From NCBI GenBank assembly GCA_002256025.1, contig NKIB01008387.1:62001-107898 (forward strand): a stretch of 45,898 bases of DNA. The letters are read 5' to 3'. The position numbers were made by a program, and so were the translations under genes. The notes under the pieces are model-generated. The model saw only the letters and a program-made list of their open reading frames with translations. It searched no databases and was not told the DNA's origin. The DNA comes from Asterionella formosa (Eukaryota). Below are positions 10,821 to 45,898 of this stretch, piece by piece. The first letter of the stretch is position 1, and the number at the start of each line of letters is the position of its first letter.

Positions 10821-11249
10821 GTTGAAATGAATTTCAGCATTAGGTACAGATGGGTGTGGTTCACCCAAGGAAGAAGTCATTGTATGTACATTTATTGTGC
10901 TGACCATTTTTTAGGTGTCGGTTTAACCTAAAATTCAGGGTGTGAATAAGAACAAGTTTCATACTTAGATGTCTTAACGGCTGCCGTCGGGAAATATTTG
11001 TCGGTTGTTTTGGGAATGAGTGGTACACGAATAAGCAAAATTACCGCAACTTGGCTGCTGGAATATTTAATAATTGAAGTAAAACTCTTCATCGTATACC
11101 GAAGTAGGAGTACATCGTACTGTATGTGGCTATACTTAAAAATATCCAAAGTAATGATGTGTTAGACCTGAATCAACACAGAATCACAACAAGTTCAACA
11201 CTTGGACCATCGTACATAAATTCACTGCTCGCTGAATTGCCTGAATGCA

Positions 11250-12559
11250 ATGCCCCTCTCCCACACCATATCAGCTCTTCCTCTAAGGCCTTCATCGTTG
11301 CTGCGTCTGGAGCAGAGAGGATTCGTTACGACTGCTGAGATTGATTCATCAAAAGAAAATGGCGGCATTGCCAACCTCGCATCTGAACTAAGTGTCTCAC
11401 TTGTTGAGGCTGCCTCTATCGTACGAGAAGTAGAGAGCGCCATCAAGTCTGTCACTGGTAGCGAGGCGCATCCATTTCGAAAAACAACAACGGCCTTATC
11501 GATTTTGAAACGAACCAAGACGACTGAGCGGACCGTTGTGACTTTTTCGAAGGCCTTGGACGGACTACTTGGTGGTGGATTTTCCAAGTCAGAAGTGACA
11601 GAGGTCGTTGGACTTCCTGGCGCAGGGAAGACGCAGTTAGCCATGCAGCTGTGTGTAGATGCAAGACTTCCTACAAGCTTCGGAGGAGTAGCCGGCGAGT
11701 CGGTGTACATAGATACCGAAGGAAGTTTCAGTCCCGAGCGTTGCTATACGATGGCGAAGGTACGAACTCACCTGAGTTACCTTTTATCAAGGCGCTTTCA
11801 TTCCTCTACTGACACACCATGCCCTTGAATTTCAGGCTTTGGTTGAGCATGTACAAAGATCATCCCAGAATCGTCGAGCGAAGTCTCCACAAATATCCAT
11901 CCCTGACCTTCCAAGTTGGTTTCAAGCGGAAAACATTTTAGACGGCATTCACGTCTATCGCGTCCACGATGAAGCCGCCCAAGCAGCCACAATCTATTCT
12001 TTACCGAAATTTCTAAAGCAGAGAACTGAAAAGGGGACTCCCGTCCGTCTCGTGATTGTTGATTCCATTGCTTTTCACTATCGGGTACGTCCCCTCATTT
12101 GCAAGGCGACTGTCGCGGGAAATATTCGTACTTTTCTCACATAGCTGCCTTGTCGAAACTCTCAAGTGCGCTCCTCCAGGATATGATTACATGGCAAGGA
12201 CACGATCACTGACAAATATTGCTGCGTTCCTCTCTGACCTTGCTGCGACTTTTGACCTGGCAGTTGTTGTCATCAATCAAATGACGACCAAGGTAGGCGA
12301 GCACGAGGCTCGATTGGTACCAGCCTTGGGAGAATCATGGGCTCACGCAACGACAACTCGCATTTTACTGTCCCGCACAGATCATCCTACTATACGAAAG
12401 TGCACATTGGTCAAATCTCCACACAAAGCTTCTGGAATGGCAATGTACGACGTTCGCGAGGCAGGGATCCGAGACGTTCTAGTAGCAGGCAAAGAGAACA
12501 AGGTCAATGATAGAATAAGTGTAGAGAAGGGCACCTTCAAGCGGAAACGTCAGTTCTGA
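11250..12559 (+). CDS. RAD51C: RAD51 paralog C; exons 11250-11759, 11836-12084, 12167-12559 (~383 aa)
   Basis: Walker A GLPGAGKT followed by QLAMQLCVDARLPTSFGGVAGESVYIDTEGSF; Walker B VRLVIVDSIAFHYR; VVVINQMTTK; LVPALGESWAHA; LVKSP; GIRD. Both GT-AG introns (76 and 82 nt) are phase 0 and join three ORF-track pieces into one frame. Confidence 0.9.
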
Positions 12560-12671: not shown

Positions 12672-15600
12672 CTACTTCTTCTGTTTGCGAGTCCAAGCCA
12701 TTGCACCAACCAAACCGGCGCCAATGACAGCAACTGCAGCAAGCCCAATCCCTGATGTACGGTGGAACGACAGCCCAGAAAGGAAACGAGAAAGCATGGG
12801 TGCATCAGCCGATTTTGATGAGTTACCATAAGCTTGGAGCCTCTTCCGAAATTTGAGGATATCTTTCGTGTTGTCCACAACAGTATCGCTGATTGAAGTT
12901 CGGACTTCCGATTTATTTAAACTGGATTGCAGAGGAAACTTCTTTCCATACACGCAAGACACAATTCTCGACGGCTTACCCAAGACTACTCTATCCCAAG
13001 TCTCGATAAGTTCTCCACGCTCGAGTCTTTTGATTGTCGAAGCAAGAGAAATGGAGCTATTCCACGGAATATCAGAAACGACGCGCCCACCTTGTAAGAT
13101 CTCTGGACAGTTCCGAAGAATTTTCCCGAAGTGAATAGACGCCTCAGTCCCTAACTTCTGAATTGGTGCCAGAATCTTTGCGCTCAACGCGTCGGCATGA
13201 TCTCGTATTTCCGATTCCGGGATCGTCTCCAACCTTAAGCGAAAGCCTGTCATGAACTCGTCGATCCTTTTGACTATCTCAGGTGGGGAGACTTTATGAG
13301 AAAGTACGTTCACAGCAATGTAATCTATCGGTGTTGTCGTAGTTCCATCGAGAAATTCTTGGTCAGGCGTGCTAGCATGTCCCAAGTCATAATAAGAGCT
13401 GACAACATATCCTAGCTGTTGTTTTGTGCGAAGATTGTTGAACAAAGGTTCTCTGAGCAAATGGCAAAGCAAACGAAGAGAGGCAGAACTCTTCAGACTC
13501 TGGGGTGTGGAAAGTACTTCTCCTCTCCACGCTGGAATCTGTGATTGATAAGTCATAAATACAGCTCCGTTTTCGTCTTCAGGGTTTTGACTTGCGAAGT
13601 GAAGCTGAATTTGCTGTGCCGGTTCCAAACGTCTTTCGTCGGGGCCTTATGAGTGTGGTGAGGGAAGAAGGTGTACAAGATTTACGTGTTGCCAGCATCC
13701 TACTCAGCGTACCTGGTACCCACAGACGTCCGCGACGCTGGGATGTTCTCTCCTCTCCATTCTTAGCCGCGATAACAATTTTCGATGCTTTCTTGAAAAA
13801 AGTTGTTGCTTCAACACTTGACACGTTCCCAGTGCACAAACACTCAATCGTATTTTCTGTGTGTTCAAGAATCGCTGTATGATGAGCTTGAAGTGATCTT
13901 AGTGAGGCCGCTTTCGCAGCTGAGAGGCTATCATCAATAGCAGACGTGCTATTGGACATCAGAAGATCTCGATAGTACATAGCATGACTGTCAGCTCGCC
14001 GAGACTGAAAATACGTGCTGAGACTTCGGACAAAATTGTCTTTCGTTGAGTTGAAATAGAAATCCCGGAAAAATGAAAGGCTGTCATCACCTTGTTTAAA
14101 GAAATCTGTCAGCAATTTTAATGCCAAGTCCAGCAGTCGATCTGAGTATCCACTACAGCTGATAGTTACTCCCGAAGTCGAGGTCGATAGAGACCAGTTG
14201 AGACCGGCCAAGTGTGCGTCGTACGTCTCCTGAGCCATCGCCTGCGAGAACATACTAGAAAGCATTGTCGATTGAATGTTTTTGGTTGTGTCGAAAGTCC
14301 AGACTCCATCAACATTAGAATGAGAAACTGCTGCATTTCTGAGCAAAAGAGTAAGCGAAGCCTTTGGCAGGGCATATCGATCATCAAGCCTGTGCCATAA
14401 CCGCCCGACAATAGGGTCAACTATGAGGAGCTGTGGAGGCTCTATGTCTTTTTCTATTCGTGGGCCTGCTTTCGCTGCGTCAGGAAGTTCTGGGCAGAGC
14501 TCCAGTGACCTTGGAATGTATCGATTTGGTTTTGGAAGGTGTAACGCATCTGCATGAGGTGTATCAACATTTTCCCACTTTAGCACTGTCTTTGCTTCGA
14601 TCGGGACAAGGTAATAGTCAATTCCGTACCATTTCTCTTGTTGTTTCCCAAATCCTTGATCTGCTGGAATTTCTACTGACGCTTCCATTTGATCCCATGC
14701 CGATTGACTGCATCTCTCAACAATACAATTTTGAGGTTTCAAGCGAGCAGCAAAGTCTACCAGTGCGTCGATAGGACAGCTCTCAGGAATTTCGTTTAGC
14801 ATAGACCCGGCGCTTCGGCAAGACTCAGTGCCGAAGCGAACTATAGCCTGCGCCAAACTAGGAGCCAAATCGTACGCCTCCCCTGGCGATGTTTGATCAA
14901 ACTGTGTCTTCGATAAAACTACCTGTTCACCCCAGATGCGTTGCAGATCATCCCTTGTTGTTGACTCGCTCTTGGCGTTGATAGCTGCCGTTAAGATAAG
15001 TTGACAATGCGCCAACAGCACCGACACTACTTCTTCCCAACAATCCTCGCCATGTTCAGTTAGTCCAACTGAAAGCTGAAAAAGGGTTTGATCAGGTCCA
15101 TAAATCCTACTCCCGGCCGATAAAGACCTGATTAATCCTGTGCTTTGAAGCGTAGCAAATGAAGATCCCGGACCTTCGTGGCCCAGGAGGTGGCTAAGAA
15201 TACGCTCAGGGCTCTGATCTACACATTTTTGGGTAGAAGGCAATGGGAAGTTCAACGCAAGCTTTCGCATAGACCTAAGAGGCTTCATCGTTAGAAGCAC
15301 TGGCCATCTACCCGACTGAAATTTAGGATTGAAAGCGGGATTATAATCGGGAATAGGCAATCCAAAAGCATAATTCGGCATGTCTACGGCAGCATCAATG
15401 ATCAAACGCTCAATCTCTGTAGGTACTCTTGGGCGCTCATGAGCCCGAATGGCACCATATCTTGGGACAATCCAGTCTTGCAATATATCCAGAGACTGCG
15501 GCCCAACCACGACAATAGTCATATTTTCAGGACAATAGTGATGACGATGAAATGCAAGTAGTGCGTCTCGAACCCATTCTCTGTTATCGCTTTCCTCCGC

Positions 15601-16158
15601 GGCTGGCAGAGTAATAGAGTTTCCTGTAGTGAACTTGCTGTAGTAATGTTCAGGATCAGCCAAAGCTTTCAAGATCTGAAGCTGACGGCGAGAGTCGTCA
15701 GTTAGATTCTTGGAGTTTTCAGAATTCACTGCATTGACTTCACGTGAAGTTCCACTGGAAGTGAACAGAGGGGCGACAAAGAAGTTTGAAAATATATCGA
15801 TTGCGTGTTCAGCATGCTCAGCCAAGACATCAAATTTGTACGTAGTCAAATGCAAGGAGGTGGACGCGTTGGATCTGCCTCCGTGCGAGGCTAAATAACT
15901 CTTATACTCATTCTCCCCAGGGTATCGCTCACTTCCAAGAAAGCACATGTGTTCGCAGAAATGAGCAAGGCCGCTCAGACTTCGAGGATCAGCAGCTGCT
16001 CCAGCATGAATTGCAGTTGCCATGGCAGTTTTCTTGCTCTCTTTGTCATGAACAGCCATGCAGGTCACTCCGTTTGCCAAGCGAAAAGGGCGATATTCTC
16101 GCCAGTCAGCTTTTCCTTTGCGTACTTCAGGTAGTAATACAACTCCATCGTTGTCCAT
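12672..16158 (-). CDS. M16A insulinase/insulin-degrading enzyme-like zinc metalloprotease; exons 16158-13713 and 13645-12672 (~1139 aa)
   Basis: GLAHFCEHMCFLGSERYPGENEY (inverted HxxEH), SNAST, REVNAVNSE, LSHLLGHEGPGS, FNNLRTKQQLGYVV. A 67-nt phase-1 intron (13712-13646, GTACGC...ATAAG) restores the frame as ...WVPGPDERRLEPAQQ. Confidence 0.92.
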
Positions 16159-16889
16159 TATCAGTTCCTGGGATTTCTATACCGAAGGTAGTCAATCTGG
16201 ATAAATATTGGAATCGCTGAGGGACCCCGACGACCTATTGCATAGAAGCACCACACGACACAGTTAGGAGCTGAACATGCAGTGGGCGAGTGTCATCAAG
16301 CCAACTGATTTCCGTCTGGCAAAAAAATATTTGTTGTTTATATGAAGGCTATTATGGAAGATATGCAACATACATACCGGTAGGGTTTAAGGGTTGATCA
16401 AAAAGAGGGGGACGAAATATCGAAATAAGGGGGACGAAATATTTTTTCTCCTATTTTTATTATAAAATAAATTTTTGTACTCATAACCCCAAAATTTGTG
16501 TTTGTGTGGTTGACCAAATTTTTTTACAGTCAGAGATAACAGTGCATTATATAAAATTATGTATATTCATGTATGACTACATATAATTTGCCGGATATTT
16601 CAAGACTTTTTTAATTGGCCGCCTCCTCTCAGCAAAAAAGGTATGCATAATTGCAATACAGTACATATAAATAATTTTTTAGTCTTTTCCCCATCTACTA
16701 CTGGTCCTGAGCACTCCACTAATGTTTCCCTGGTTGTTTTCCGGAGTCGTAATAAACATAGACACCATCCAAAAGAACTGCAACCATCTGCAGTCAGTGA
16801 CCTGTCTGTGGCTATTTGTTTTCTTAATCCCAGTTTCAAATGCCTAATCAGTCTTTCTGTTCCTACAGGTCCAAAAGGTATTTTAAATC

Positions 16890-25707: not shown

Positions 25708-26448
25708 TTAACAACTCGACTCATAAGAAGCCCTGGTGTTGATGCACGCTAGCAAATCGCCCATGATGGGTCCGACTCCAGTAATCTTCTGCAGATCATT
25801 GTCACTCTCTGGTACTATTCCACCAAAGTGAGATTGAATTTCTTGTGCTGCCTTGACTATTTGTTTTGCTTTCATGTTGTAAAATTGCAGGGAACTCAAT
25901 ACACTTGATAACACTTCCGGGTCTGCTTGGGATAGCCTTGCAGCAGTTAGTTGTCCCCCAAATGCCTCTCGAAGGGCTTGCATACATCGTCGAACTACAG
26001 CTTCTTGGCATCGAGCATGCAACCGAGAAGCCACCAAGACCTGAAACCGACGATCCTCCAACGCCGCCGTCGGATCGGCCAAACTATGCCATTTTCGCCG
26101 AACGATTTCTTGCTCGGTCGGTGAGAGTCCTTTCATTTGAACCCAATCCTTCTTACGCGCTGAGTTGGACTTCTTCGGGGCATGCCGCGGATTTCGTTCC
26201 TTCTCTGTGTCTAGCTTTCTCTTGGGAGCGACCCATTTTTGGGAATTAAGAGTTGTCTCGGCGACTTGTTGAAAGGCGAACTTGGTAAACGGATTGATGG
26301 ACTGAATGGTGCTCGCCTTCCCGTCTTTGTCGCTTTTGAGGTTGCTCCTGTCGTTGATAGGAGAAGCGCAAAGGTCTATTATCTCTTGATCCGGTGCTTC
26401 CGCGACGTCTTCTTCATGGGTTGAATACTTCGAATGAATTCCGTCCAT
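25708..26448 (-). CDS. Endonuclease III (NTH1)-like HhH protein, short and apparently non-catalytic (246 aa)
   Basis: RRFQVLVASRLHARCQE, LQFYNMKAKQIVKAAQEIQSHFGGIVPESDNDLQKITGVGP. Uninterrupted ORF with gene-like GC content. Confidence 0.8.
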   Translation of the reverse strand: MDGIHSKYSTHEEDVAEAPDQEIIDLCASPINDRSNLKSDKDGKASTIQSINPFTKFAFQQVAETTLNSQKWVAPKRKLDTEKERNPRHAPKKSNSARKKDWVQMKGLSPTEQEIVRRKWHSLADPTAALEDRRFQVLVASRLHARCQEAVVRRCMQALREAFGGQLTAARLSQADPEVLSSVLSSLQFYNMKAKQIVKAAQEIQSHFGGIVPESDNDLQKITGVGPIMGDLLACINTRASYESSC

Positions 26449-26680
26449 TGCAAGTGTTATCTGCGTTTACTTCTCCATCGTTCCTTGTTAATGTATTATA
26501 GCCGCAATAAACTAGCTATCCCAACCCTACCGGTATTAGCTAATATAGTCTTGCTTTGCGATGACAACTGTGCATGTCTAAGTAATTTTTGGTATCTTTA
26601 AGTAAATGTTGTGGGGCAATGAAGCAGGCATAGTGGATTTTTCGGGATTCCAATCTTTAGATGTGAGCACGGACCATAGA

Positions 26681-27963: not shown

Positions 27964-28085
27964 CAGTGCATATTTTTTGAGTCATCATTGTTCTTTGCCC
28001 ATTGTACCAGGTACCGCTATAGTTGCATATAGTGGTTGACAACCATATTACTGCACAGAAATTAAGATTCGAAATCGTGGTCACC

Positions 28086-29816
28086 ATGTTGGACCTGCTT
28101 CCTGAAGATTTGGGTCGTCAAGTGTCCCTCTTCTTGGTTGCCCCTGATGTTCTAAATCTGCTAAGCACGCATCCAGAATTGAACAAGCTGGGACTGTCCG
28201 AACATTTCTGGCGAGAATTGTTCGCACGTGACGCAGAAATCGAAAATCTCGCGATTGCGCAGCAAAAAGCATCACTGCATGATCAGGTGGAAAGCAACAA
28301 TGATGAAACAGCAGAAGCAGCGGCAGCAAAACGCTCATTTTTGATACATTCACATGCTTACTGTCTTTCTTCAGTTCGTTGGCGTCCTCTTCGTACTGGC
28401 TCGCAAACTCCGTCGCCAAGGGAAGGCCATTTGATGTGTGTTTTCGGACCTCCGTCAAGGCGCAAGGTTGTTGTAACTGGCGGATTTTGTGACGACGAAC
28501 GGATCCATGTTTTGGATATGAATGCATCTGACAAAACGAACCGTCGTTGGTGTCCCCTTAGACCTGGAGGCGAGCAACCCAGCTTTGTCTATGGTGCAAC
28601 TATTACAGCTATCGACGAGGGCAGGGCTGTTCGATTTGGAGGGTTTCAAGCTGGAGGTTACTTGCACGAAACAAACGATGTCGCTTTGCTCACCTTGAAA
28701 CTGGATGAACAGGGTCATGTATCAATCGTAACATGGGAGACAGTTATCCCCTCTGGAAGACTGCCATCAGGGAGAGCCTATCATTCCGCAACTTTGATTT
28801 TAAATCGATTTATTGTCGTTATCGGGGGGATGAGTTCCCGAGGTTCATTGCTAGATGAAGCCATTTTGGACTGCGAAACATGGACATGGATTGAAAATTC
28901 CGTTTCGTTTTCGGCAGAGCACCGACCTAGTGGCCGCCACGGACATTCTGTTCTCGCTGATCCCGTCCGTAACCGATTGGTCTTATTTGGTGGTGCAAGC
29001 GGATCGGATCTCCTTCGATCTGGAGTGGACAACACCGAAATATGGGAACTGAGAATGAGTAGCAATTGGAAAGGAGAATTTTTAAGTTCTTTCCCCTGGA
29101 AGTGGAGGCTTGTGCATCACGATCAGAGTGACGAAGTCGAGGATCCAAGAACCAGTGATGTATCAACACATGAAATGAACCGTATACTGGAAATCTCCGA
29201 TACCGAAGCCCTTTGTTTGGGTCGATGTCACGTAGGTGTACGAATATCAAGAGATACAGCCCTACTTGCTTTTGGATCTGGGAAGCCAACTACGAATGGT
29301 TTGCTGGCCTATGATTTGGGCACTGATTTGTTCATACGTCCTGACGTTAAGGGACCGTTGCCAATTGGTAGATTTACCGCTGCTGCTACTGTGATTGATA
29401 ACAATGGTTGGGTCATTTTCCATGGTGGTTACTCAACGCAGCGTGGAGGCACTCTAGGTGATACAGTTGTTCTTGACTTGGCTCCTTCCATGAACCGATC
29501 TTTCACTGCCCTTCATACAGCAGAAGAGGGAGATATTGGAATCACATCACATCCTCCGGCTAGCATGCGAGCAGTTGTGCCACAGAACAACTATAGCATG
29601 GGTGTAACGATTAACCAAATTTTGCAAGTCCCCCGGGGAGAACACCCGGCATGGGTAGCTTCCGAATTGACAGAGCTATTAAACAATGGCGGCCGAATCG
29701 GTGATAGAGCGGCATTGATTCTTTCAACAATGGCAAACAGAGCGGCAGCGTTTGGAAATGATCTCGATACTGCTAATGAATCAGACCTGGAGGTGGATGA
29801 TATGTCGATCAATTGA
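28086..29816 (+). CDS. F-box and Kelch-repeat protein (~576 aa)
   Basis: First ATG at 28086 opens an F-box-like segment, MLDLLPEDLGRQVSLFLVAPDVLNL...SEHFWRELF. Kelch blades follow: PSPREGH...VVVTGG, PSGRAYHSA...VVIGG, PSGRHGHS...LVLFGG, PIGRFTAA...IFHGG. Confidence 0.88.
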   Translation: MLDLLPEDLGRQVSLFLVAPDVLNLLSTHPELNKLGLSEHFWRELFARDAEIENLAIAQQKASLHDQVESNNDETAEAAAAKRSFLIHSHAYCLSSVRWRPLRTGSQTPSPREGHLMCVFGPPSRRKVVVTGGFCDDERIHVLDMNASDKTNRRWCPLRPGGEQPSFVYGATITAIDEGRAVRFGGFQAGGYLHETNDVALLTLKLDEQGHVSIVTWETVIPSGRLPSGRAYHSATLILNRFIVVIGGMSSRGSLLDEAILDCETWTWIENSVSFSAEHRPSGRHGHSVLADPVRNRLVLFGGASGSDLLRSGVDNTEIWELRMSSNWKGEFLSSFPWKWRLVHHDQSDEVEDPRTSDVSTHEMNRILEISDTEALCLGRCHVGVRISRDTALLAFGSGKPTTNGLLAYDLGTDLFIRPDVKGPLPIGRFTAAATVIDNNGWVIFHGGYSTQRGGTLGDTVVLDLAPSMNRSFTALHTAEEGDIGITSHPPASMRAVVPQNNYSMGVTINQILQVPRGEHPAWVASELTELLNNGGRIGDRAALILSTMANRAAAFGNDLDTANESDLEVDDMSIN

Positions 29817-30166: not shown

Positions 30167-33100
30167 TTAGCTTTTCGGGTTAACGTACGTGCCCGGTGCG
30201 GCGGCCGCAGCATTATTTGACCTCGTATCGCTGTATTCTCTCAAAAAGAAACGGCGGCTCTTCAAATCCCACGGTCGACGTTTTGGCGGATCGCTGCCGC
30301 TTACAAATCCTACATAATTCAATGTATTAAAGATCCAGATGCTGCCTTCACGGCCACCTGATCCAGTATCGTCCCATACCTTCTGAACAAATGTGCTTTC
30401 TCTACACCATGCCTTGCAGACACATCTCATGCATTTCACATCAGGTGGCTGTTCTGTTGTTGTACCAATGAAACCCAAGGCTACAAACTCTTCGCTTGGG
30501 GGTACCGGCTCCCACGCATAAAAAGGGTTGCTACCATGGGTTAAACTCCATGCCAAACGAAAGCGAGCCGGGAATGGCAAATAGCGTTCCAGCACCAATG
30601 GCAGCCAACTGCTCCCACCCATGAAGCTTCCCGATGTATCTGTCACTTCTAAAGCTAATCGATCTTTCCCGTCGCGGCTTGGATTATCGTATCCTTCTCC
30701 AGCAAAGTGACCGAGGGAGACAGCCGTTTTGTTTCCTCGGAAGGCGCTGCTGGTTACAGCAGGGTCCCATACACTGGCTTTTTGCCGACTCATACTTCCT
30801 TGACTGGTCCAAATCTGAGAGAATTTGGTTAGTTTCTTGACCTTGACTTTTATTGAAGCCAAGACTGCTTCGGGTATCACTATTTGTTGTTTCTCGCGTT
30901 CGTCAGACGGCATTGGAGGCAATGGTAGCATGCCGTTGGTCTGTGCAACACCTTCGTCGCCTTCCCAACCAACTGCACCCTTGAACTCATCAAGATTAAT
31001 AAAGCCATCTTTGTCTTGGTCCACTTCCTTCATGAACCCAAGGAGCAGTGACTGGTCTAGCTTGAGGTCCAGCCACTCAAGACCCTTTCTTAGATCGTCG
31101 TAATCCAATAGACCATCCCTGTTGCGATCAAAAGCAACAAATGCATCCCGAGGATACATTCCACGAGACTTAAGGAGCGCTGTGATTCTTCCTGATGCAA
31201 TTTTGTGTGAAAGAAGGTGATGCTCGTTGTCAGTAATGAAAACCTTTGAAAGCGTGCTTGTTGCAGGATCTTTCTGCTTTCTTCGACGGTTGCTGCGGAC
31301 CTCGACAAAATAGTTGTAGCGATTTTCCGTCGAATTATTTTGAAGGGCTCTCAACAAGAGACTCAATTCACGGGGTTGATAATTGATTGCACTGTCAATG
31401 AAGCGATAGCAGGCATGAGCGGTGGAATCTTGGAAGCTCTGGGCTGGTTCGTATCCGTGCGTAGAATCAAGTAGGGTTCGCTCGGTTCGTAGAGCAACAG
31501 TGGCGTCTTTTCCAGGTACCAACGACATACCGGATCGCTGATGAAGGGCCGCTCGCATGCACTCTGCTTCGAACAAGGATAGGGCCACATAGTACCGGCC
31601 GGCTTGAACTCTATAGTACATACGTTGCGTCAACAAATTCTTTAGCTCATCGAAAGTGACTGTTCTCGCGTTGCCGGTAGGGCCCACCTGCATATTTTCG
31701 AAGAACTTGTCACCTTCCTCACCGTCAACATCTACATCAACAGCTCTTAGAACTTCTTTGATTTCAGTTATTGAAATACCTCCAGATTTATCAGCTGAGC
31801 CAGTAAAAGCCTTCTGAAGATTCTTTTCTTGAGCAGGAGTGAATGGCTTGCTCACAGCAGCCACGTCTCTCAACATGGCTTTGGAGGGAACAAAATCCAT
31901 GGTGACAATCACGTTCTTCAAACGACGCTGGGTTTTGAAACTCCAAGACTTTTCAAAGTAGTTCTGGGACATGTGCATATAGTCCGGAAACTCAAGCGAA
32001 ACAGGTTTCGAGAATGTATAATTCTTCACTGTGAAATCAGATGCTGGATAGAAATGCTTTTCCCACGATTCGATTTTTCCGGTCTGTGTCTCATTGTCTG
32101 AAGCCTGGAACTTGATATTACTTGATTTTTTGGAGACTGATAGCGACGTGATTGACCAGGGAATGGGATTCTCGCCATCTCGAGCATATTTCTTCTTCTT
32201 GGCAGACTCTTTAACAACTTCTTCTTCCTCCTCCTCCTCTTCTTCCTCTGCGGTAAGAAACAGAACAAAGTGAGATGTGCTTATTAATATGACGAAGCAG
32301 TGACCAAAACGTATCGTACCTTCCTCCTCTTCTTCTTCTTCTTCCTGCTCTTGCAAAACTTCCTCTTCAGCAACTTGCTCTTTTTGCAGATCAGCATCTG
32401 TATCTTCCTCGGCGACCTCATCAATGGATGGCGCACCCACTGCTTTCTTCGCGAGCCCTTCAGAAGTGCCGAGTACCATCAAAATCTTGTCGACAACAGC
32501 CTTGTCGTAATCATTTTCAAAAAAATCAATACGCCTCATGACACTGTTTCTGAGCGTTTCGGACAGGGGCACAGGGAGGGGAATGTCGTTTTGAACGACA
32601 TAGTCAAGACGTTCGGTCAGAACATCTAGCGAAGCTTGTAGCTTTGCAATTCCGACCGCCTTTTCTTGGGTGATTGAAGTCCCACCGGTTCCAGCCTGCA
32701 CCACAGACCTGATCTGTGCGAGATCATCAGAGAAGAGTTTTCGGGACCCATCGAAAATTCCATCTAGGTCCGAAGCGATATCACCTGTGCTTGAGGTTAC
32801 CGTGTTCGCTGCAATCGCAGCAAACTCCTTGACTCTACTGGCAAAAGCCAACTGTGTGAGCTCCTTGTAGTTTCGCGTGAGAGTATAATACGCTCTCTTT
32901 CGCGTGACGTTGTCGACGCTCTGTTGACATAGCATTCGGAATTGAACATTTTCCGATTTCATTCCATTCACGGTCAACCACGATGCGACGTTCACAAGCA
33001 GCTGTTTGCCGTGTGAAGCACTTGATACGCCAATAGGAGCTGTTGCAACGAGTGACGACATTGATAGGAGGTCGTTTCCAAAGTGGCCAGAGGCCGGTTG

Positions 33101-36100
33101 CTGAACAACGGCTAACGGATTAAGCATCGGCTTGTTGGACTTCTTTAGCTGATCATCGACCAATCGCAAGACTTCAGGTACGACAAACAGATGAATAGTT
33201 TGACCCTTTCCGATACCCCTCATGCGGAAGGCGCCTTGAGCGTAGTCACGAAAGGTCATGTCTTTTCCCAATGTGAGCACAGCCCTTGCATCAATGCATT
33301 GGTGAATATCCATCCCAGTTGTATGAATTTGATCGTAAAAGGAAAAGCGACGATGAGGGGGGATTCCAGCTTGGTTCAATCTCACAACATTCATCCCGTG
33401 CCTCATGAGGATCATTTTTCTGTCTTTATGATCCAAGAACACAACTCCGTCAAAATCTATGGAAAGGCCGTGTGTGATGAGGTACTTTGCCACCTCATAG
33501 TTGCTTAGACCCGTAACTAGCGCTCCTGAGTCAATCAATACATGGAATGGAGGGTCACTGGTGATGATGTCATCCAGTATCTTCGTTGCAGTCCAATGGG
33601 CAGGTAAAAGCCGGCTGGATACGATTGCCTCAGAGGTCAGGTAGTTGATAATTTGACCATCAACACATTCGTCGTACTGGCATTGACCCAGCTCCTCCGG
33701 GAGCAAATCACTTGGGGTTCCACTGAAACCGACACGTTTGCTAAAAAGCATTTCTCCACCCAAGTCTTGACCAGATGCACTGATTTTCTCGTGATGGTGT
33801 TCCATCGTCAATGGGAAAACAAATTGATCAAGATAGTATTCAATGACATGCGGTAACCTACCGAGAAGCTTGTAGGTAACCCCCATATGGTGTTCATCCC
33901 TAAGATCCAGCAAGTGTAAAGGCCAAATATCATCAGCTCCTCTACCACCTATTCGAGCGACCATTGGGGCACGTAGGAATATATCTGTGTCATCAGCTGA
34001 CCCGTTCGCGCCAGCTGCCGCTTCTCCTTCACGTGGTCCTCGGACTTTACCACCAGCCTCTTCAACCCAAGTCTTATATCGCAGAGCAGATGGACGCTTG
34101 TGGTAGGGACCGTACTCTGAGTCGAGGCGTTCTCGAAGTTCCAACAAGACATTCTCGAAATCTGTGAAACGCATGCCTTCATACCTGTAGGCCATAATTG
34201 TTAGTCCAATAACAACATCTGGGTGTGAAAACTGGCTGGCACGGCTAGGTACATCCTTTCCAACGAATGGAACGGCAGCGAGACGCCGCGTCAAGGAAAT
34301 ATTAGAGTCAGTTTCAAGAGACTGCTTCATGTCTATCTTGGAAAGTAGACCGAATGTAACTCGGTTGATTTTTCCGAGCATGAATGGAAGAAAGTTGTGG
34401 AGAAGGTCGTGACTAAGGTTCAACATTTTCATGTATTCATCATCCAAAGCAACGGAAACGGCAGAAGTGGCGGCTCGGTCCTTGTTCGGTCCATTGATCA
34501 TGTACGACAACAAATGCTTGTCTTCCACTGACGGCAAGCGCTTGTTCCGCAAGTAAAGGAGCTGCCATCGTGCTACGAAGTGTTTGATGTGCTTATGGTA
34601 GTACCCTTTGTTCAACAAGACAAGGTGAGGCGTTTGTTGTAGATATTTCTCGTTCATTCCCTGTTGAATCGCATTTGCAATACCGTCTAGAATAGTGATC
34701 GCTTCACGACTGTCCTTGAAGGCGACTGACATTTTTTTCTCAGTGAAGTAGAATACACAATCGAGTAGATGCCATTGGATCTCCCATCGGAGTCCCATTC
34801 CTAGTCTGGATCTTGAGAAGTCAATTGGGTCTTTCTGACCAATTGGCCAGTTCAGCTCACTTTTCAATGGGTGCAAAATCAAATCGACTTCGTCCAAAAG
34901 CAACACACCACTCCTGAATAACTTCAAGATCTCGGTACAGTAGTAAACATCTTCGGGATCGACTTTCACATCTTGAATGACGCTCTGATCACGGAATCTT
35001 CTTGCAATCGCAGACAACGAGAAAGCTGAAAGGAAGCCACCTCCTTCCCCCTTCGATCTACGCAACCCAGACTTAGATTCTTCGAGATGCCGCATCATTT
35101 CTACAAACTTCAACTGGAATGACTTGATACTAGTTGGAGTTGCGCAGATAACAGCTTTGCTGTCTCTTGCCTTGCATAGCTTCAAATAAAGCTCTCTAGT
35201 GATCGGAGTACCCCTATCGAAGTGAAATGTAAACACAGGTTTTCGCACAACGGCAGCAAATTTTTCGCGCATCACGCCCCTAGAAAAGTCAAGCAAAGCA
35301 TGTGGGACCACCTGAGTTACGAGGTGGTTTCCGTCAGCAAGCATAAGGACAAGTAGAGGAGTCACAACGGTGGTCTTTCCAGCCCCCATGATCATTTGAT
35401 GACACATAGATTTTCCGTTTCGGAGCGAGTTCATGAATTTATCGACCAAAACAACTTGACTCTTGCGAAGCATCAGAGAATAAGTGAATTCAAAGACCAA
35501 GTAACGCGGATCAAACTCGATAAAAGAAGGATTTGCGCTATCCATTTTCATGAAGTATCGTTCACTGGTGATGTCGGACGCAACTTTTGCGGCTTGTAAA
35601 CTGATTTCTTGGCAAACTCTCAATCTCTCTTCTTGTTTTCTCGGACTCTGCACACTTCGAAGTAACAATACCAATTTTGCTAGGCTTGTTAGAGCTCGAT
35701 CGGTTTGCGCGATTCGAATCGATGTGAGCATCGCAACAACAGTCAAACTTGTGACTGTTTTGTACGCTGTGGCCGACATGTACGGATTCAGCGAACGAAT
35801 GTCATGTTCTGCTGTCGTCGACAAGATGGAGGCGACAAGTAATTCAAACCAGGCAGAAGGTTCGCGCTCTGAGCATTGCCCAAGGCGGAACCTCAAGAAG
35901 TTACTTTCACCGTTGTGACCGCCGACACTTGGGGTATCGCTTCGCTCGTCACTCGTTGCAATGGCCAATGCTCGATTCATCAAGTTCCACAAGGACTTCC
36001 GATCAAACTGCATAGCTTGGTTCAGTGCCTGGATCAAAGCATTCAGCTGAGATGTGGCCTTGTTGAAGGCCTGTGGGGAGTCATGTAAACTATTGATTTC

Positions 36101-39100
36101 TGATGGAGAAAATCCAATCAAAGTAGGTGTAGTTTCTGCATTCGTCTTTTCGGCATACTTGAAAACGTCGGTTGTCACACGTTGCATTGTAGCCTGAGAG
36201 CAATGAGTATGTGTTGCTCGCTCGCCGTCTAATTTGAACGGGAGAGCCCCTGAGACGGGCGGAGTTCCCATTTGGTAACGAGAAAGGTTCGCCACATAGG
36301 AGTCTAACTTCATTGGTGCGAGTGGCTTCGACGCAAATGACTGTAGCTGTTTCACCGGGATGTTGACAGAAGCACAATTCTGTATGTCTAGATAAAACTT
36401 CGATTGCGAATAGTCAGAAATTCTTGGTACAACCCAAAGTCGATGTTGAGAATAGGACTCAGGACGGTTTAGGATCATTGTAGACCTTGGGGCGCTTTCC
36501 CTCAACACTGAAGGCAGCTGCAAAAGATTGCGAACACCCTCCTGCTTGAAATAAGCCGCGAGTTGCTCGAGAAGGCGGGTGACTGCGTCCCGACCTTGGA
36601 AGACACCCTTGAGTTTTGCCATACCACTCTCAATTTGAAACTTGGGTATGTTGGGATGGTTTGCCAATGTCGGATTTTCGGCGAGAATACGGAGAACGGA
36701 CATTTCCGCCGAAGTGCATTTGAAGTCCGAAGGGGGAAGCAAACGAAATAACATTCTTCCCCAGTTGTGAGGCCGGTCATTTGGATGCAACTTGAAGGCA
36801 ACTGTGTTGGTCATTAAGTCGTACAGGAGTGGAAATCCATACTTCGATGAAGCCATTTCGATGCCAGAAGAAAGAGCATTGTTAATGTACTCTAAAGCGC
36901 GGAGACCACCATATGCGATTTGATCTTCTTCAGGTCTCGAGTAGGCAGCACCAAAAAGTTTTGAAGAAATCATAGTATTCTTTGGGTTCTCCATAATTGT
37001 CATATCTGGCCCTTGATCAAAATTGTCAAAAGGTGGCATTTGTTCTGTCCCGAGTTTGATGGTTAATGACTTGTCAAGGGGGAGGCTCCTGAGACTTGTC
37101 ACAGCAGTCACATACGCTTTTCGATTTAGCAATGCTAAAGACAGCTTGTCCCTCGCAGTCGGGGCACAGAGCTGAAGAAGAAGTAACTCTTCCTCAGTCG
37201 TCAGCCGACAAGCCGACGAAACGTAAGGATGTTTCTTGCAATAGTCCTCCATTTCCTCTGCGACGCTCCAAGGGCAGCGCATTGCGTCATCTCCGCCAAG
37301 ACCAACAGTAACAACTGAAAGCTTCAACCTACAGGCATGTGCATCTGGATGGTGATCATTCCCCAAGAACTCAAGCTGGTCAAAAATTTGTTTTTCCTCT
37401 GGGCTCAACTCTTCACTGACACAAGATTCAACCATTTTAAAGACGTTCTGGTACGAACCAGTGATAAAGTACATTACCATTAGGTACATCGATGAAGCTA
37501 GAGAGGGTGTGACCAAGAAGGACCGAGAGTTATGAACAGGATACAAGTAGCATCTGACTTCGCCAATATTATCAATCCATTCTTGATTCCTCCTATCAAG
37601 GATCACTTGCACAGACAAGTGAGAGCCATTCATGTGAAGACGGCGAGGCAAGGCACATCCAGGAACCAGGACGAAAAGATCATTCTCGGCATTTTGGAGC
37701 ACTATAAAATGAGAAATTGACCCTAGCAATCTTTCAGCAATTTCTCGTGCCTCTGAAGACGTTGAGATGAAAAGGCCATCGTGATCATTGCTGTAGAGTC
37801 GATACTCGGGCGTGCCTTGAATTGAATCTACATGTTTAGCTTTAAAAGACAGATTGACTCGCGGGAGCTCAATGAAGTCAATAGAGCCAGCAGAATGGGC
37901 CGAAGAAATCCTTGATGTGCTCCAAAACAAAACGTGCGACAGATTGTCGAGTCGCGAAAGAAGCATCCCAATACGCTTCAACAATGACGAAGGTGGAGCA
38001 GAGAGGACATTCAATAGTGTCATGACCGGGCGATTCTGATCAGTATTATCTGCCTCTTGATTGGCATTTAGGCAAGGAATTCGCTGAATGAGGGCTTCAG
38101 CTTGTGAATTGCAGAAGCCGGTGTTGTCGAAATCGTCAGCCTTCGCCATGGATATTCTTAGCCTCGTTGATGGTTTTTCGGTTAATTCGTCGTCAGTATC
38201 GTCCTCCGATTTTGGCGGTGTTTCTTCGTACCCGATAATATTATCGTTTTCACTTTGCCAAAAAGTGTACCTTTCCACCAACGCTGTCGGTAAAAGACCT
38301 GCTAAGAATCTATCAGGTACTAATGTCTGTGTGCCAAGTTCCGCATTAAGGGCCCTTGTTATGATAAGCGAAGCATCAGGATGAAGCGTTGTCATCGGAA
38401 TCCCTGTAGAAAGAGACAAAATGCCTCCAACTCTGTCTGGATAAGGTTCTCCTGTGCCTTCGTGAAGACACAAAGACATGTTAGATGTGTACTCCAGCAC
38501 TCTCAAATGTCTCCTCCCGTATTCCTTTACGTTGTAGATATTGATGACAGGCGGATGCTGCCAGACAACAACTTCTTTCAAAGTATGCGTGTTGACAGTT
38601 TCAGAATTGCGCGGGTTTTCGATCCAACCTGACAGAACTACGAAGGGCTCCACTGATACATCATTCTTCGACATAAACAATTGAACATCTGGCAGAATCA
38701 AAGAGAGTTTTTCTTGAAGGACATCCGCAACCCACTTCTCACCAGCAAGTAGACCATTCGGGAATTTCCTGGTGAAGCTGAGATCCCTAGCTTCTTTAAT
38801 GTCATAATAGTTGCGACTGTCAGGGCCCCACGATTGTACGTCGTAACGACGACCGACAAGTCGCCACCAGTACCTATTGGTGGTATGCATAACTTCTGCA
38901 CATGCAATATCTGGCGAATCCTTCAGGGCAAAGTGACGAGTTGAAGCAAAGTCAGGATCATCCATAATTTGTTGGTTTAGCAAGGTCATCTTGTGATTCT
39001 GAAGAGTGAAGTCACTAAGTTGAAGATTTATTTCGATGCCAACCGCCTTCGTCGTGACATAGAGCATCCAGGCTTCAAAACTCTGACCTGGTTGCGGCAC

Positions 39101-42100
39101 ACGATAACTTCCATCTCGAAGTTGCAGGTCTTCAGTGTCAGGAATGAAACGACCATAACAGGTGGGATGCCCAATACTTTGCCAGTGCCTTTGTTTCAGT
39201 TCGGAATCACCTTTCTCCCGCGCTCCAGTTCCTGTAGCAATTCTCTCGACATCTTCCATAGCTCTATCTCCGTCAACTCTGTTTTCTCGAATAAACCGAA
39301 GAATGTTGTAGCGATGAGTCTGAATAATATCGAAAATTTCAGATTGTGCAATCTGAATAGATGGGGGTGGGTGCGTCGGGTTTGGTGTATCTTGCAGATC
39401 ATCGTATACGTTATTGCTGAAACGATGATTGATGGTCAAATATACTTGTGACGAAAGGATCACAGAAACAGCTCTGTAATCATAATCACCATATGAGTAA
39501 TTCTTGTACAAATACAGAAGATGGGCATGCACACGGCAACAGACGTCAACATCCTTGTTCCTCGTAGGGTCAATCCAATATTCCAGGGTAGGAATGGCCT
39601 GCGAGTTAATCATGTTGCGAATCTTTTTGAGGGCGCTTTCAACCTTTATGTTGTCCATGGACTCCAAACCTCGAGGCCTTGCCCGTCCTGGAATGCATTT
39701 GTTTAATGCGTATTTCATATATCCTTCAATGCGAACAGCCAACCGAATTGTATACAGAATCAATGGACCAGATGATGACACCTTTGTGTACTTCCCAACG
39801 TCCATGTCAAGCGCCCTTTCGAACATTTTGATTACACACGATGTTAAAACTTCAGGAGACTTAGCAATCTCATTGAAGAGAGTGCCATGAGGGGTCGCCA
39901 GAAGAGCCTTCAGCTTCTCTCGATCCACTACTGGAACTTCTGTTATGATGTCGGTGAAATCAGCGGGTCGCCAATTTCCTGGCTCAAACAGGCATGCATC
40001 AACGATCAGCTGCAAAGACTTGGTTTTCAAGCCAGAAAGACGTCCAGGGTCACCATTTGCGAAGAAGTCTAAAATGAGAGGAATTCGTATGTAAGGGACA
40101 GTTAAGAACTGAATGAATCGCTCAGCATCTGACGGTGACATCACGTTTCCAAATGAAGGCAATTCCTCTTTTGTCAAATGAAGGACATCATCCTCGTTTT
40201 CAACCGGAATAGGTTTGGCTCTAATGAATTTGTAACGAAGAAAAGTGTAAGCCACATGATGAATTTGAAATGAAAGAAAGTGACAGCGTTTCTTACCTTG
40301 ATTTTTGGAATTTTTCGCCACAGGAATTGACAACTGTAGTTGGGTCTGCAGACGATAATCGCTGCCGCTCTGTCTTCGATTTTCCGAACAATGACAGGAA
40401 ACCTTGGAAGGCACCAGGACCGGTTTGCACTGCGGCAGATTTGTCCACAAACTCTTGAGGAAAACCCTGGTATGCCATAACACTGTAGATCAGTTCAGGA
40501 TCTTCTTTTTCCTTCCTCTTGACATCCCATCGAAGAATAGCATCGGAAGGGAACCAGACTTGTGGCTTGTTGTCCTTCGGTTCAGCAGCCTGTGACTTGC
40601 CTGACACAGAGTGCTTGAAATGGAAAACGATATCACGGAAGTACTCAAAGTCAGGAAGAACTTCAACAATTGCTCCATTCCTCCCAGAGATCAGGGTAGC
40701 AGCATGATTCGCCCTTGCCTCGTTGGTTGCGGGATACGGCCTAGGCAAGGCCAATTGGATCGCAAGTTGTGTGATCAATTCTACATCACCTGCAGTCGAA
40801 GTGTCGCTTACATCGAAATTGAATATTGTGAGGTTGAATGTACCATCACGTCTCAGAGTTGATCCCCTCAAATAATCAAGACACTGGAAGCGTAGAGAAC
40901 ATATATTTGGGTCGTAAATTGGGAGATTTGAAGCTAGAGACTCGAACGATCCGGCTTCGATACCGAATGGCTGAGTTGGACCCTCGCAAAGACCTGAGTA
41001 ATGCAAAGCAAATGCACTAGGATCATCCACTGCCTTCACGCGGCAAATAGCATCTGCGACACAAGCTGCACAAGCAAAGGCGGTCGACCTAATAGCAATG
41101 AGTCCGCGCGATTGTTGAACACAAATGGTTGCTGCTGAGTAGATACGACAGATACGACGAATAAGAAACAGCAAATTGACTTGTGTTTCTCTTCGCATAT
41201 CGTTCTTCCTCCAGAAACAATATGCAGGGTCTAAATGTGGCATTGGAAGGATATTGGTGAGAGCATATTGTGCAGCTGAAGCAGCAAATGCAGGAGCGTT
41301 CTTGACTAGGCGGCGCTGTTGGAGTAGCAAACTGCAGGCATCTGCAATTCTTTGCAAGGAAGATGTTGCTGTTACGTAATCGGTAGCAATGGGTGGCAAT
41401 GTTTCGTCAGTCAGGACTGCAGGAATCAAGATTGGATCTGGGCGAGGAACTCCCATTAACGCTTTCACGACGTTTTCGTAGTTGTCGCGACGAAGCCTTC
41501 CAAACAAAGGGTGAGCGACTGATCCCGTCTCTGTGCGTAATGATGGGATAGTACCTTTCGAAAACGAGTCATTCATGGCAGTCACCGACAGGCCGTGATT
41601 GTGCTCATCAGTTACCTTTGATGAGGAATATGACAGTTTCTTGAGAAGCTTATCAAGTAAATCCCATGTACTGGATAGTGAAGTACCTAAAGAACCATCG
41701 CCAACTGACAAGGAGTCTATAGTTGACGCGTAGTTTGCAAGATTACGACCAGTCAATTTCAAAATACGACTATCTTCAGGATCCATAGAAGATGGTGGGG
41801 CGTTCTCTATCTCTGCATAGGCCAAGTCAACTGCGGCATTCATCACTAGTAAGGCCGAATACTTTGCCGGGCGAGCTCCTATTGATGGAGTGGTAGTTAA
41901 TACCAAACGAGCAAGAGGATGAAAGGACAAGGCCGAGATTTCGTCTGGAGGTTCCAAAAATTCATGAGGTCCTTGGTCCAAGTTCGACAGCAATGGCTGC
42001 GCATTCAGGGACGGTAGGAGTTTGGTATATAAGAATTCGGCGCTATTTCTCTTTGAGGGGTAAACCTGCATTCTGAAAAGGACAACCCAAAAGGTAGAGT

Positions 42101-43859
42101 CCATAATTCGTAGAGCAGGTATGTTCCAAATTGTCATCGCCATTTGCTTCAACTGACGCCCAGTTTCGGAATCAAAACTCGATGGATGATACTGCAGTCC
42201 ATCTCGTCCTGTGTTGCAGACAGTAAAGGAAAACGTGTTATTCCCACAGTTGCGGAGGATGTAGAGGCAAAGGTGTCCATACTCCGTCCGCTGCCACCCA
42301 CCGGGGACTACCAGCTGCTGATTTGGTTGAAGGTTTTCGATCAGTGACATCAGTACATTCACAAAGTTGAGAAACAACTGGTCTAGCTGTTTTCCGGAAG
42401 TACCAGCCGAATGGGGCAAAATGCCAATCAACTTGATGCATGCTTCACACGCCATGTGATTCGAACGAAGGAATGCCAACGGTGAGCTTCTAGAGGACTG
42501 TTGGCTCTTCCCGAGTCCAAAACGGCCTCGACCTGTTCTCGTTAAGTTGTCACTCTCAGCCACAACATGACAAACGAAACTGAGAGCTTTTGCCAACTGC
42601 TCATACATTCCAGCAATATCTTTCGATTTTTCTTGAGGAACCGGGGAACGACGAATGTAGGTATCCAATCCCATCATTGCCCAGAAGGGCGGCACACGAT
42701 AAATTGGAGAGAAACGTCGATTTGGGAGCTGCCCATCTGTTCCGGCCAAAAAGTCATAGGGGTTGAATGTGCTAGAGGAAGAGTGAATAGTCGAAGGAAT
42801 CCCCAGTCCAGTCTCCACTGCTTCATCATTGGACGAGTCAATGACTACGCCACTGGAACCAATGCCACCCTGAGTAGGCTTGATCGTCGCCTGTTGCCTT
42901 GTAAGTTCCTCCTTTTCCTTCCGCATCTGAGCCTTGATTGCGGCCTGCTCTTGTTCACGGCGCCGTTTGGCTTCAGCTTCGTCCAGTGAAACAGGCTTGG
43001 TAGAATCAGCAGGAACCGCCGACCTGGTGGTCGTAGCAGTAGGCTGTCCCTGAGGAAGAGCCTTGACTGGAGCAGGGATAGGTGACGCCACCCGAGTCTG
43101 GGCGACAGAAGCAGCATTAGCAGGCGACGATTTCTTTTGATTTGAAGCAGTCTTTGATGTAGTAGTTGTGGAGATCCCCAATCGAGCCATTGCAGCTGCA
43201 GTAGAATCTGGGCTTGCAGGAGATGCCGGAGGAGCAGCTCGCTGCTGAAGTACCACAGGAGGCTTTGTCGCGCCTACGGTCGAGGCAGGGGGCATGCCAG
43301 CCATACTCATTTGACCGCCAGAAAGTGGATGCGAGCCAGTAAAAGTTGGAGCAGGAAGTTCTCGGTTCTGAAAAGATGGCATTGCGGGTACTGGAGCCAA
43401 ATCTAGGCCTGCAAAAGGGTCACTCTCTGCAATTCTGAAAGCGGGAGTCGGGACCCCAAATCCAGGCTGAGGTCCGAAGCCGGTTGCAGCTGGCTGCCCA
43501 AAGCCAGCGACTGGTTGTTGCTGCTGATATCCAGATTGAGGGATCAGGGGGTTCGGCGTATACACCTGACGAACTTGTTGCTGTTGCTGGACCGAGGAGG
43601 TGAAGGTAACTTGTTGCATCTTTTGCTGCATACTTTGCTCATTTTGAGGGCTGAATGCAGCTGCAGACTGTTGAGGAGCAGCAGTGACGTAGGCAGGAGG
43701 AAACCACCCTTCTCTTCCACTGTACGATCCCCACCACCAAGCGTTTCCTTCCTGGCCAGCTTTCGCCGTCAAAATGGCACCTTGAGGAAAGGAGATCTGA
43801 GCTTGCCTGACGTCACCAGCAAAGGCGTGCTTCGCAATAAACGAAACTGTAGGAGCCAT
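30167..43859 (-). CDS. Giant multidomain protein (~4514 aa): SH3, Pro/Gln/Ala linker, DUF3638/DUF3645-type SF2 P-loop ATPase, poly-Glu, EF-hands, Vps62/DUF946-like C-terminus; exons 43859-40297, 40220-32320, 32247-30167
   Basis: SH3: FIAKHAFAG...ISFPQGAIL...WWWGSYSGREGWFPPAYV. Intron 40296-40221 (76 nt, GTAAGA...TTAG, phase 2) fuses the 1196-aa and 3438-aa ORFs in frame; a second intron lies at 32319-32248 (72 nt). ATPase motifs QMIMGAGKTT, LLLDEVD, GFSGT, QGAFRMR. DUF3645-like LAAVPFVGKDVPSRASQFSHPDV. EF loops DRNRDGLLDYDD and DQDKDGFINLDE. Vps62-like WEPVPPSEEFVALG...VWDDTGSGG. Confidence 0.88.
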
Positions 43860-45128: not shown

Positions 45129-45898
45129 ATGGCAATGTATTCAAGGGTTCCTGTGATTCCTTTGATCAAAGACTACAATGTATTGACCATCAAGACTAAA
45201 ACGTTCAGAGTTGCTTTAACCGGTGGAAGGTTTGAATCGTTTGATCAAGATATGATCGATGGAAGCTCAGTGGAAGCATTGTTAATTGGAGTGAGTCAAT
45301 TTCGTGACATGGCTAACACATGTGACTTTAGCCCTGCAGATACCTTTTCCTACTTTAAAAGGTGTTTGACAGACATTGCCTTATCGGATTGGTTGAATGT
45401 GTAAGTACACCCAGAAGATCAATCTTATGATAGTTTCGAAGAAGCGATGGTTTTATGGTTAGACGATTGTTTACCAAATGAGAGTTTTCAACATCAACGA
45501 CAATGGATGCTACGTTATTTATCTAAAACCTTTTCTATGTTGGTAATGGATTTCGGAGCTCGTATTAAAACTTTTAACAGGCTACTTCAACTAATGCCTC
45601 ATCCAGAAGATCAAGTTGGATTGTCAAAAGAAGATATACGGATTATCATTATCCGTTCTATGCCCGATGAGTGGCAACAAGAGTTTGAATTAAATCATGC
45701 AAAGACTTCAGACCAATCGATTCGCTCGGTTCTCGCTTACTTCGAGAGTCAACAATCGTTTAAGGATCGAAACAAGCATCTTCCCAAGAACAGTTTTCAA
45801 ACAATCACACAGAACCGTCTTCGCATTGCTGAAGGCAATCGTGTGATGCGTCAAGAAAACGAGCGTGTCAGTCGTCAATTCTACAAGGATAATTTTAC
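45129..45898 (+). mobile_element. LTR-retrotransposon (probably Ty3/Gypsy) gag-like ORF with one in-frame stop; runs off the window
   Basis: FSYFKRCLTDIALSDW...*...SFEEAMVLWL...QRQWMLRYLSKTFSMLVMDFGARIKTFNRLLQLMP...LSKEDIRIIIIRSMPDEWQQEF resembles stramenopile gag capsid patterns. Single TAA at 45402-45404, then the same frame stays open to the window end. Confidence 0.7.

Follow-up and report, generated by a model that had tools for sequence, protein, structure and literature searches.

The subject of this study is a giant gene of the diatom Asterionella formosa, located on the minus strand at positions 43859-30167 of a stretch of 45,898 nucleotides (assembly GCA_002256025.1, contig NKIB01008387.1, positions 62,001 to 107,898; all coordinates are those of this stretch, the window). 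The gene is a real, intact and transcribed member of the DUF3638/DUF3645 family, which is catalogued but unstudied, and in itself it is an ordinary member of that family. After removal of two introns the joined frame encodes a protein of 4,514 amino acids (aa) with the ordered motif set of a superfamily 2 (SF2) ATPase, a pair of EF-hands and a head domain, predicted to have a cysteine-protease fold, from which the catalytic Cys and an accompanying Gln have been lost. The new elements reported here are the RNA support for both introns, a count and a tree of the co-conservation of the catalytic residues, the correction of the C-terminal domain label towards a beta-tripod, and a caution on the use of insert position in classifying the motor.

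The list of open reading frames contains two long frames on the minus strand, 43901-40293 and 40489-30167, which a preliminary description of this DNA, made from the letters alone, had joined into one spliced gene. The gene structure is the following:

40297..43859 (minus strand): exon 1, coding from the ATG; N-terminus 54% identical over 63 aa to the transcript ortholog P0007
40221..40296 (minus strand): intron 1, 76 nucleotides, GT..AG ends (AAG followed by GTAAGA...TTAG); joint 40220/40297 in RNA contigs of runs X1, X5 and X6
32320..40220 (minus strand): exon 2
32248..32319 (minus strand): intron 2, 72 nucleotides, in frame and stop-free, within a poly-Glu tract, GT..CAG ends
30167..32247 (minus strand): exon 3, to the stop codon; the joined frame has one terminal stop

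The proposed union of both frames was borne out by RNA contigs in three of the four runs (X1, X5 and X6, from three studies), which skip the intron at 40221-40296. The ortholog P0007 aligns across the same junction (aa 3-3805, 66% identity). Two separate genes are ruled out by the RNA joint and by the orthologs aligned across the junction; likewise, among the 26 in-frame GT-AG joins available near it, a consensus donor occurs only in 40296-40221 and the other pairs are ruled out by the RNA joint. At intron 2, the contigs from X4, X5 and X6 each have 75 letters vs 147 in the genome (72 lost), and the residues that it would encode are absent from the Ditylum ortholog. This second intron had been overlooked, so that the expected product of about 4.5 thousand residues is right as a size class, with 4,514 aa instead of 4,538. 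All the RNA runs consist of assembled contigs, none of which spans the whole gene, and we infer a single full transcript from overlapping contigs and from the orthologs that align across intron 1. The gene is transcribed in many lake samples.

Thirteen of the 15 closest homologs (P0001-P0009 and P0011-P0014) cease to match at spliced aa 3805-3816, in the poly-Glu tract (32319-32248), and end soon after; P0007, a transcript-derived 'complete' open reading frame, is among them. The site of intron 2 is probably shared among the homologs, truncating the database entries, and a shorter isoform that lacks the EF-hands and the tail may exist.

Every motif of the SF2 set was found where the preliminary description had placed it:

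35398-35369 (minus strand): QMIMGAGKTT
35314-35291 (minus strand): QVVPHALL
35143-35123 (minus strand): ATPTSIK
34903-34874 (minus strand): LLLDEVDLIL
33730-33713 (minus strand): GFSGTP
33541-33518 (minus strand): VLIDSGAL
33340-33308 (minus strand): FYDQIHTTGMD
33244-33215 (minus strand): YAQGAFRMRG

By Pfam matches and by the motif patterns of the homologs, these are assigned to two lobes around an insert:

34874..35398 (minus strand): SF2 lobe 1, motifs I, Ia, Ic-like and II (DUF3638; Pfam and homolog motif patterns)
33731..34882 (minus strand): insert of 384 aa between motifs II and III, with DUF3645 at 34291-34199 (Pfam)
33215..33730 (minus strand): motif III and SF2 lobe 2, motifs IV, V and VI (homolog motif patterns)

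Motifs I, Ia, II, III, IV, V and VI are all present, in order and conserved. Since the patterns recur in 118, 119, 116, 108, 115 and 112 of 120 homologs, with a DE[VIC]D context at motif II in 119 of them, the set is not a product of chance and the ATPase is likely to be active. The count of 384 aa between DEVD and GFSGT agrees with the insert of about 385 aa described earlier; in 115 homologs the spacing between motifs II and III has a minimum of 351 and a median of 394.

Pfam assigns the protein to its family through DUF3638 (PF12340; E 3.8e-25, 89 bits against a curated cut-off of 31) and, downstream of it, DUF3645 (PF12359; E 2e-14, 53.1 bits against 25). DUF6606, the mark of the fungal DUF6606-DUF3638-DUF3645 subfamily, has no match at E <= 1 in this protein or in 22 head sequences, and the NCBIfam and PADLOC profiles gave nothing near cut-off. 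The motor region matches 473 proteins of 1,842-5,863 aa at E <= 1e-10, and Vitrella, Chromera, Eutreptiella, Prymnesium, Diplonema and Amorphochlora are named among the best 120 of these. Members of the family are known from many groups of protists and from giant viruses: proteins of Ditylum brightwellii (A0A6V2M4H7), Vitrella, Chromera and Klosneuvirinae-type viruses share the motif set, the size and both DUFs over cut-off. The nearest named relatives are diatoms, namely Ditylum, with 73% identity in the motor and likewise with EF-hands and a 'Vps62' domain, and an 81% cluster holding Fragilaria crotonensis. Close orthologs are 73-90% identical in the motor and all have one architecture. Compared with other family members, the Asterionella protein is distinguished by its N-terminal SH3 and long Pro-rich linker and by a head without Gln and Cys. 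The combination of domains, thought earlier to be undescribed, is already present in databases, where the Ditylum protein P0010 carries DUF3638, DUF3645, EF-hands and Vps62. In prokaryotic genome contigs there is one family locus, a single open frame of 3,315 aa that runs from end to end of a 9,947-bp contig of an Anaerolineaceae metagenome-assembled genome (L005 1-9947) and is likely to be eukaryotic contamination; viral contigs searched by sequence pattern contain no family locus.

No functional study of DUF3638/DUF3645 proteins was found in the literature by domain name, accession or concept, in line with the earlier statement that they are functionally uncharacterised. In the accessible parts of the sources they are only mentioned in gene lists (PMC6237848, 10.64898/2026.10.14.759018, PMC5423893, PMC12615304), one of which gives their mechanism as undefined (PMC12615304). 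In these partial texts DUF3638 also appears as a gene specific to its lineage in Aspergillus, as a highly polymorphic gene in Plasmodiophora and as an expanded family in microsporidia (PMC6237848, 10.64898/2026.10.14.759018, PMC5423893).

The head domain had escaped the preliminary description. Its parts are located as follows:

41724..42710 (minus strand): cysteine-protease-fold head, AnkH/LegA15-like, with His-Asn-Gln-Cys order, a pseudo-enzyme here (aa 384-712)
42273..42275 (minus strand): His529, retained triad His (sequence, state HN--)
42213..42215 (minus strand): Asn549, retained triad Asn (sequence, state HN--)
41928..41948 (minus strand): place of the lost Gln-x4-Cys motif (aa ~638-644; sequence)

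The predicted fold is that of the cysteine-protease-like domains of AnkH (6mca) and LegA15/AnkD (7kj6, 7ew8, 7xql), to which the head is 9-12% identical; in those proteins the domain sits with ankyrin repeats, whereas here it is placed on an SF2 motor, is eukaryotic and has no nucleophile. The Gln and the catalytic Cys are lost in Asterionella, where the stretch from aa 549 to aa 841 is free of Cys. Several DUF3638/DUF3645 relatives are entered in UniRef as 'ubiquitinyl hydrolase 1', a label that cannot hold for this head because both residues are absent. Across the family, the order His, Asn/Asp, Cys is complete in 41 of 191 rows, so that about a fifth of the sampled members have the triad intact, and His, Asn, Gln and Cys are co-conserved as a set in 41 of 45. 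The Gln stands five residues before the Cys, a spacing typical of the oxyanion hole in clan-CE proteases, and ULP1/XopD-type proteases are absent among the matches listed (VIA, Foldseek), which excludes nothing. The head alone is matched by 3,107 clusters at 50% identity. It also matches Legionella effectors and, at E <= 0.001, seven proteins of giant viruses (Klosneuvirinae-type, several paralogs per virus) named DUF3638, ubiquitinyl hydrolase 1 or uncharacterised; the viral DUF3638/DUF3645 members have the same head fold.

Around the head and the motor, the remaining parts of the protein are:

43674..43847 (minus strand): SH3-like domain (aa ~5-62), Pfam SH3_2, E 2.9e-4, 20.9 bits, under the cut-off of 21.8
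42750..43673 (minus strand): Pro/Gln/Ala-rich linker (aa ~63-370), from sequence, aligned in only 4-6 of 120 homologs
35513..41723 (minus strand): about 2,040 aa conserved in the family, without named domain, spanning intron 1; 50-116 of 120 homologs align
31763..31798 (minus strand): degenerate EF-hand-like loop, from sequence only
30974..31150 (minus strand): EF-hand pair, Pfam EF-hand_7, E 4.4e-14; calmodulin matches at E ~1e-7
30368..30850 (minus strand): 'Vps62'-labelled tail, Pfam E 1e-4, 21.3 bits, under the cut-off of 22.1

The SH3 match recurs weakly in all five close orthologs that have the N-terminus, three of them over cut-off, and the linker is likely to be disordered. Neither Pfam nor NCBIfam nor PADLOC gives a noteworthy match in the large middle region, and in the ESM Atlas this region meets unnamed clusters at 0.88, a lead only. 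A conserved block follows the head at ~41500-40900 (spliced aa 780-1000), with near-invariant Cys842, Cys881, Trp883, Gln893, Asp936, Arg940 and Asp945; it has no family name and might be a further enzyme or a metal site. The EF-hands recognised earlier are a canonical pair, the second loop fully so and the first with Asp at position 12, and the degenerate loop upstream was called against the EF-loop consensus. The tail finds its best PDB match in the beta-tripod protein GNIP1Aa (6fbm, E 0.0032), a weak match over 80 aa with a W-D-D-x-G-x-G pattern. According to the accessible text of PMC7613979, citing Zaitseva 2019, the 'Vps62 domains' of plant VPS13 are beta-tripods, possibly protein-binding, whose name comes from a spurious alignment. 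The tail is thus probably a beta-tripod domain, unlike GNIP1Aa and the plant VPS13M domains in being a single C-terminal copy on an ATPase, and this identity would remove the main support for the role in trafficking that the preliminary description had suggested. No evidence was found for the membrane association also suggested there.

Accessory modules vary among the relatives. By hand counts of precomputed domains in the best 120 homologs, with names checked on 12 proteins, EF-hands occur in 63, ubiquitin-type modules in 19, thioredoxin-type in 15, 'Vps62' in 13, PH in 8, SH3 in 4, WW in 4 and FYVE in 1. The ubiquitin-type group is composed, with overlaps, of RanBP2/NZF fingers (9), MIB_HERC2 (7), UBA-type (3), RING (1) and AZUL (1), all of which have a link to ubiquitin. 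In the 12 proteins checked they are located at one of the chain ends or within internal loops. As judged from domain content, they indicate that the clients are proteins rather than nucleic acids.

Taken together, these features may be those of a cytoplasmic, ATP-driven protein remodeller tied to ubiquitin-like tags, a reading that we prefer over the others, though tentatively, as possible rather than probable. An ancestor would have coupled a His-Asn-Cys isopeptidase, most likely acting on ubiquitin or a ubiquitin-like protein (Ubl), to an SF2 motor, and the nucleophile would have been lost several times within the family. In Asterionella the dead head could still bind the tagged substrate, and clients could be brought in by the SH3 and the beta-tripod. 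The two SF2 lobes could move or unfold these clients, clamped by the insert of 384 aa, in a cycle tuned by Ca2+ bound to the EF-hands.

Several observations weigh against the remodeller. This protein itself lacks a ubiquitin-binding module, RNA is another possible ligand of RanBP2-type zinc fingers, and searches by sequence found no PDB, Pfam or named relative of the head. It is even conceivable, if very unlikely, that the head is a nucleotide-binding or acyl-transfer module and that the motor serves an unrelated scaffold role; the conservation of His, Asn, Gln and Cys as a set, with the clan-CE spacing of the last two, speaks against this. AnkH showed no detectable protease activity in vitro, and LegA15, of the same fold, is reported in the accessible part of PMC9757750 as an atypical GTPase that needs Cys361 and is little affected by H268A. 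Fold and triad therefore do not prove deubiquitinase activity.

Further points against it concern the motor. Nucleic-acid SF2 families were matched under cut-off (Pfam ResIII in 9 of 31 proteins and DEAD in 4 of 31), and the ESM Atlas neighbours, at lead level only, are ResIII, DinG-type and pPIWI_RE_Z clusters at 0.77-0.80. These weak sequence signals lean towards nucleic-acid SF2 families and not towards SecA. The earlier proposal of a polypeptide remodeller instead of a nucleic-acid helicase is supported by the accessory domains. A nucleic-acid translocase of DinG/XPD- or ResIII-like type, remodelling ribonucleoprotein or chromatin complexes, is an improbable alternative. In its favour are the insert that DinG has in the corresponding position, the ResIII and DEAD matches, the Atlas neighbours, RecQ5 rows at E 1.3 in a PDB sequence search with the motor, and an hhalign alignment of lobe 1 that is slightly better on DinG (4.9%, 52 columns) than on SecA (1.7%, 30 columns); all of these scores are non-significant. 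Two other PDB searches with the motor gave a best row at E 1.1 and 0 rows. A second profile comparison gave 2.3% for both SecA and DinG, and the hhalign values as a whole were 0.1-4.9% against DinG and 0.4-2.3% against SecA, while SecA and DinG profiles compared with each other gave 68.7%. The references were E. coli SecA and DinG, with shallow alignments of 19 SecA and 20 DinG sequences (one phylum plus E. coli). Motif VI opens with QG as in DinG; motif II is DEVD and not the DEAH of DinG/XPD, no conserved Fe-S cysteines occur between motifs Ia and II in a 62-row alignment, Helicase_C_2 (Pfam) matches 0 of 31 proteins, and the accessory domains are of protein, lipid, redox and Ca2+ type.

The preliminary description had argued for SecA from the position of the insert. 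E. coli DinG also has an insert of about 207 aa between motifs II and III (invariant alignment columns D248 and S459), which we take to be its arch domain, and because of this the position is not diagnostic of SecA. The accessible text of PMC6300356 names the arch domain without its place among the motifs. The stronger form of the SecA idea, a translocase that serves vesicle trafficking by pushing polypeptides through a channel in a membrane, appears highly doubtful. The motif order, DEVD, a similar motif I (QMLMGEGKT in 12 of 118 homologs), the position of the insert, the strand before GFSGT, by eye like that before GMTGT in SecA, and the PH, FYVE, SH3 and WW domains of relatives are in its favour. 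However, SecA Pfam families match 0 of 31 family proteins and NCBIfam SecA models 0 of 8, the profile comparisons favour neither SecA nor DinG, the insert is more than double that of SecA (384 vs 171 aa in P0386, counted by hand), motif VI reads Q-G-A-F-R-M-R instead of Q-L-R-G-R-A-G-R, with an arginine spacing like neither SecA nor DinG, the 'Vps62' name is probably a mislabel and no SecYEG-like channel partner is known. SecA-like domains in giant bacterial proteins belong, in the accessible parts of the reports, to another family (10.1101/2023.11.21.568195, PMC8195603, PMC3482391). A role as an effector in conflict or defence is also rather unlikely; the protein would then combine a sensor, a motor and an enzyme in a dormant state, directed at giant viruses or intracellular bacteria whose own copies would be counter-measures. 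The viral and Legionella matches of the head, the variability of accessory domains and the patterns reported for Aspergillus, Plasmodiophora and microsporidia fit this idea, but the strong conservation of the close orthologs and their single architecture are unlike fast-evolving defence genes, PADLOC gave no match of note and the gene is transcribed in many lake samples.

Elsewhere in the window, Pfam identifies a TPR-repeat protein at 3-1769 (plus strand, open at the window start), an HhH-GPD base-excision repair protein at 25708-26466 (minus strand) and a Kelch-repeat protein at 28023-29816 (plus strand). The last is convergent on the giant gene, with stop codons 350 bases apart, and its N-terminus is F-box-like by eye, although Pfam gives Kelch only. 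There are also a Rad51-family gene at 11220-12559 (plus strand; at least two frames, probably spliced), an M16 (insulinase-type) peptidase at 12672-16176 (minus strand; two overlapping frames, probably one spliced gene) and an open frame at 45405-45896 (plus strand) that runs off the window, has no Pfam match of note and looks gag-like (retrotransposon) by eye.

For the present, the database labels 'ubiquitinyl hydrolase 1' and 'Vps62' are not to be trusted at face value here. The family is large and unstudied, and the anatomy of this member offers direct tests through its conserved ATPase, its Ca2+ site and a triad that some members keep intact and this one has lost. Beyond the protein remodeller proposed for Asterionella, it is a long shot that DUF3638/DUF3645 proteins form an unrecognised eukaryotic class of polypeptide translocases, with an SF2 motor, without an AAA+ ring and with a fused ubiquitin/Ubl isopeptidase, of which the diatom copy would be a Ca2+-gated pseudo-enzyme. 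If this were true, the family would be a single-chain counterpart of p97 together with its deubiquitinase, in which the nucleophile was repeatedly dropped, leaving a tag-reading pseudo-enzyme, and giant viruses and Legionella effectors would carry the same head.

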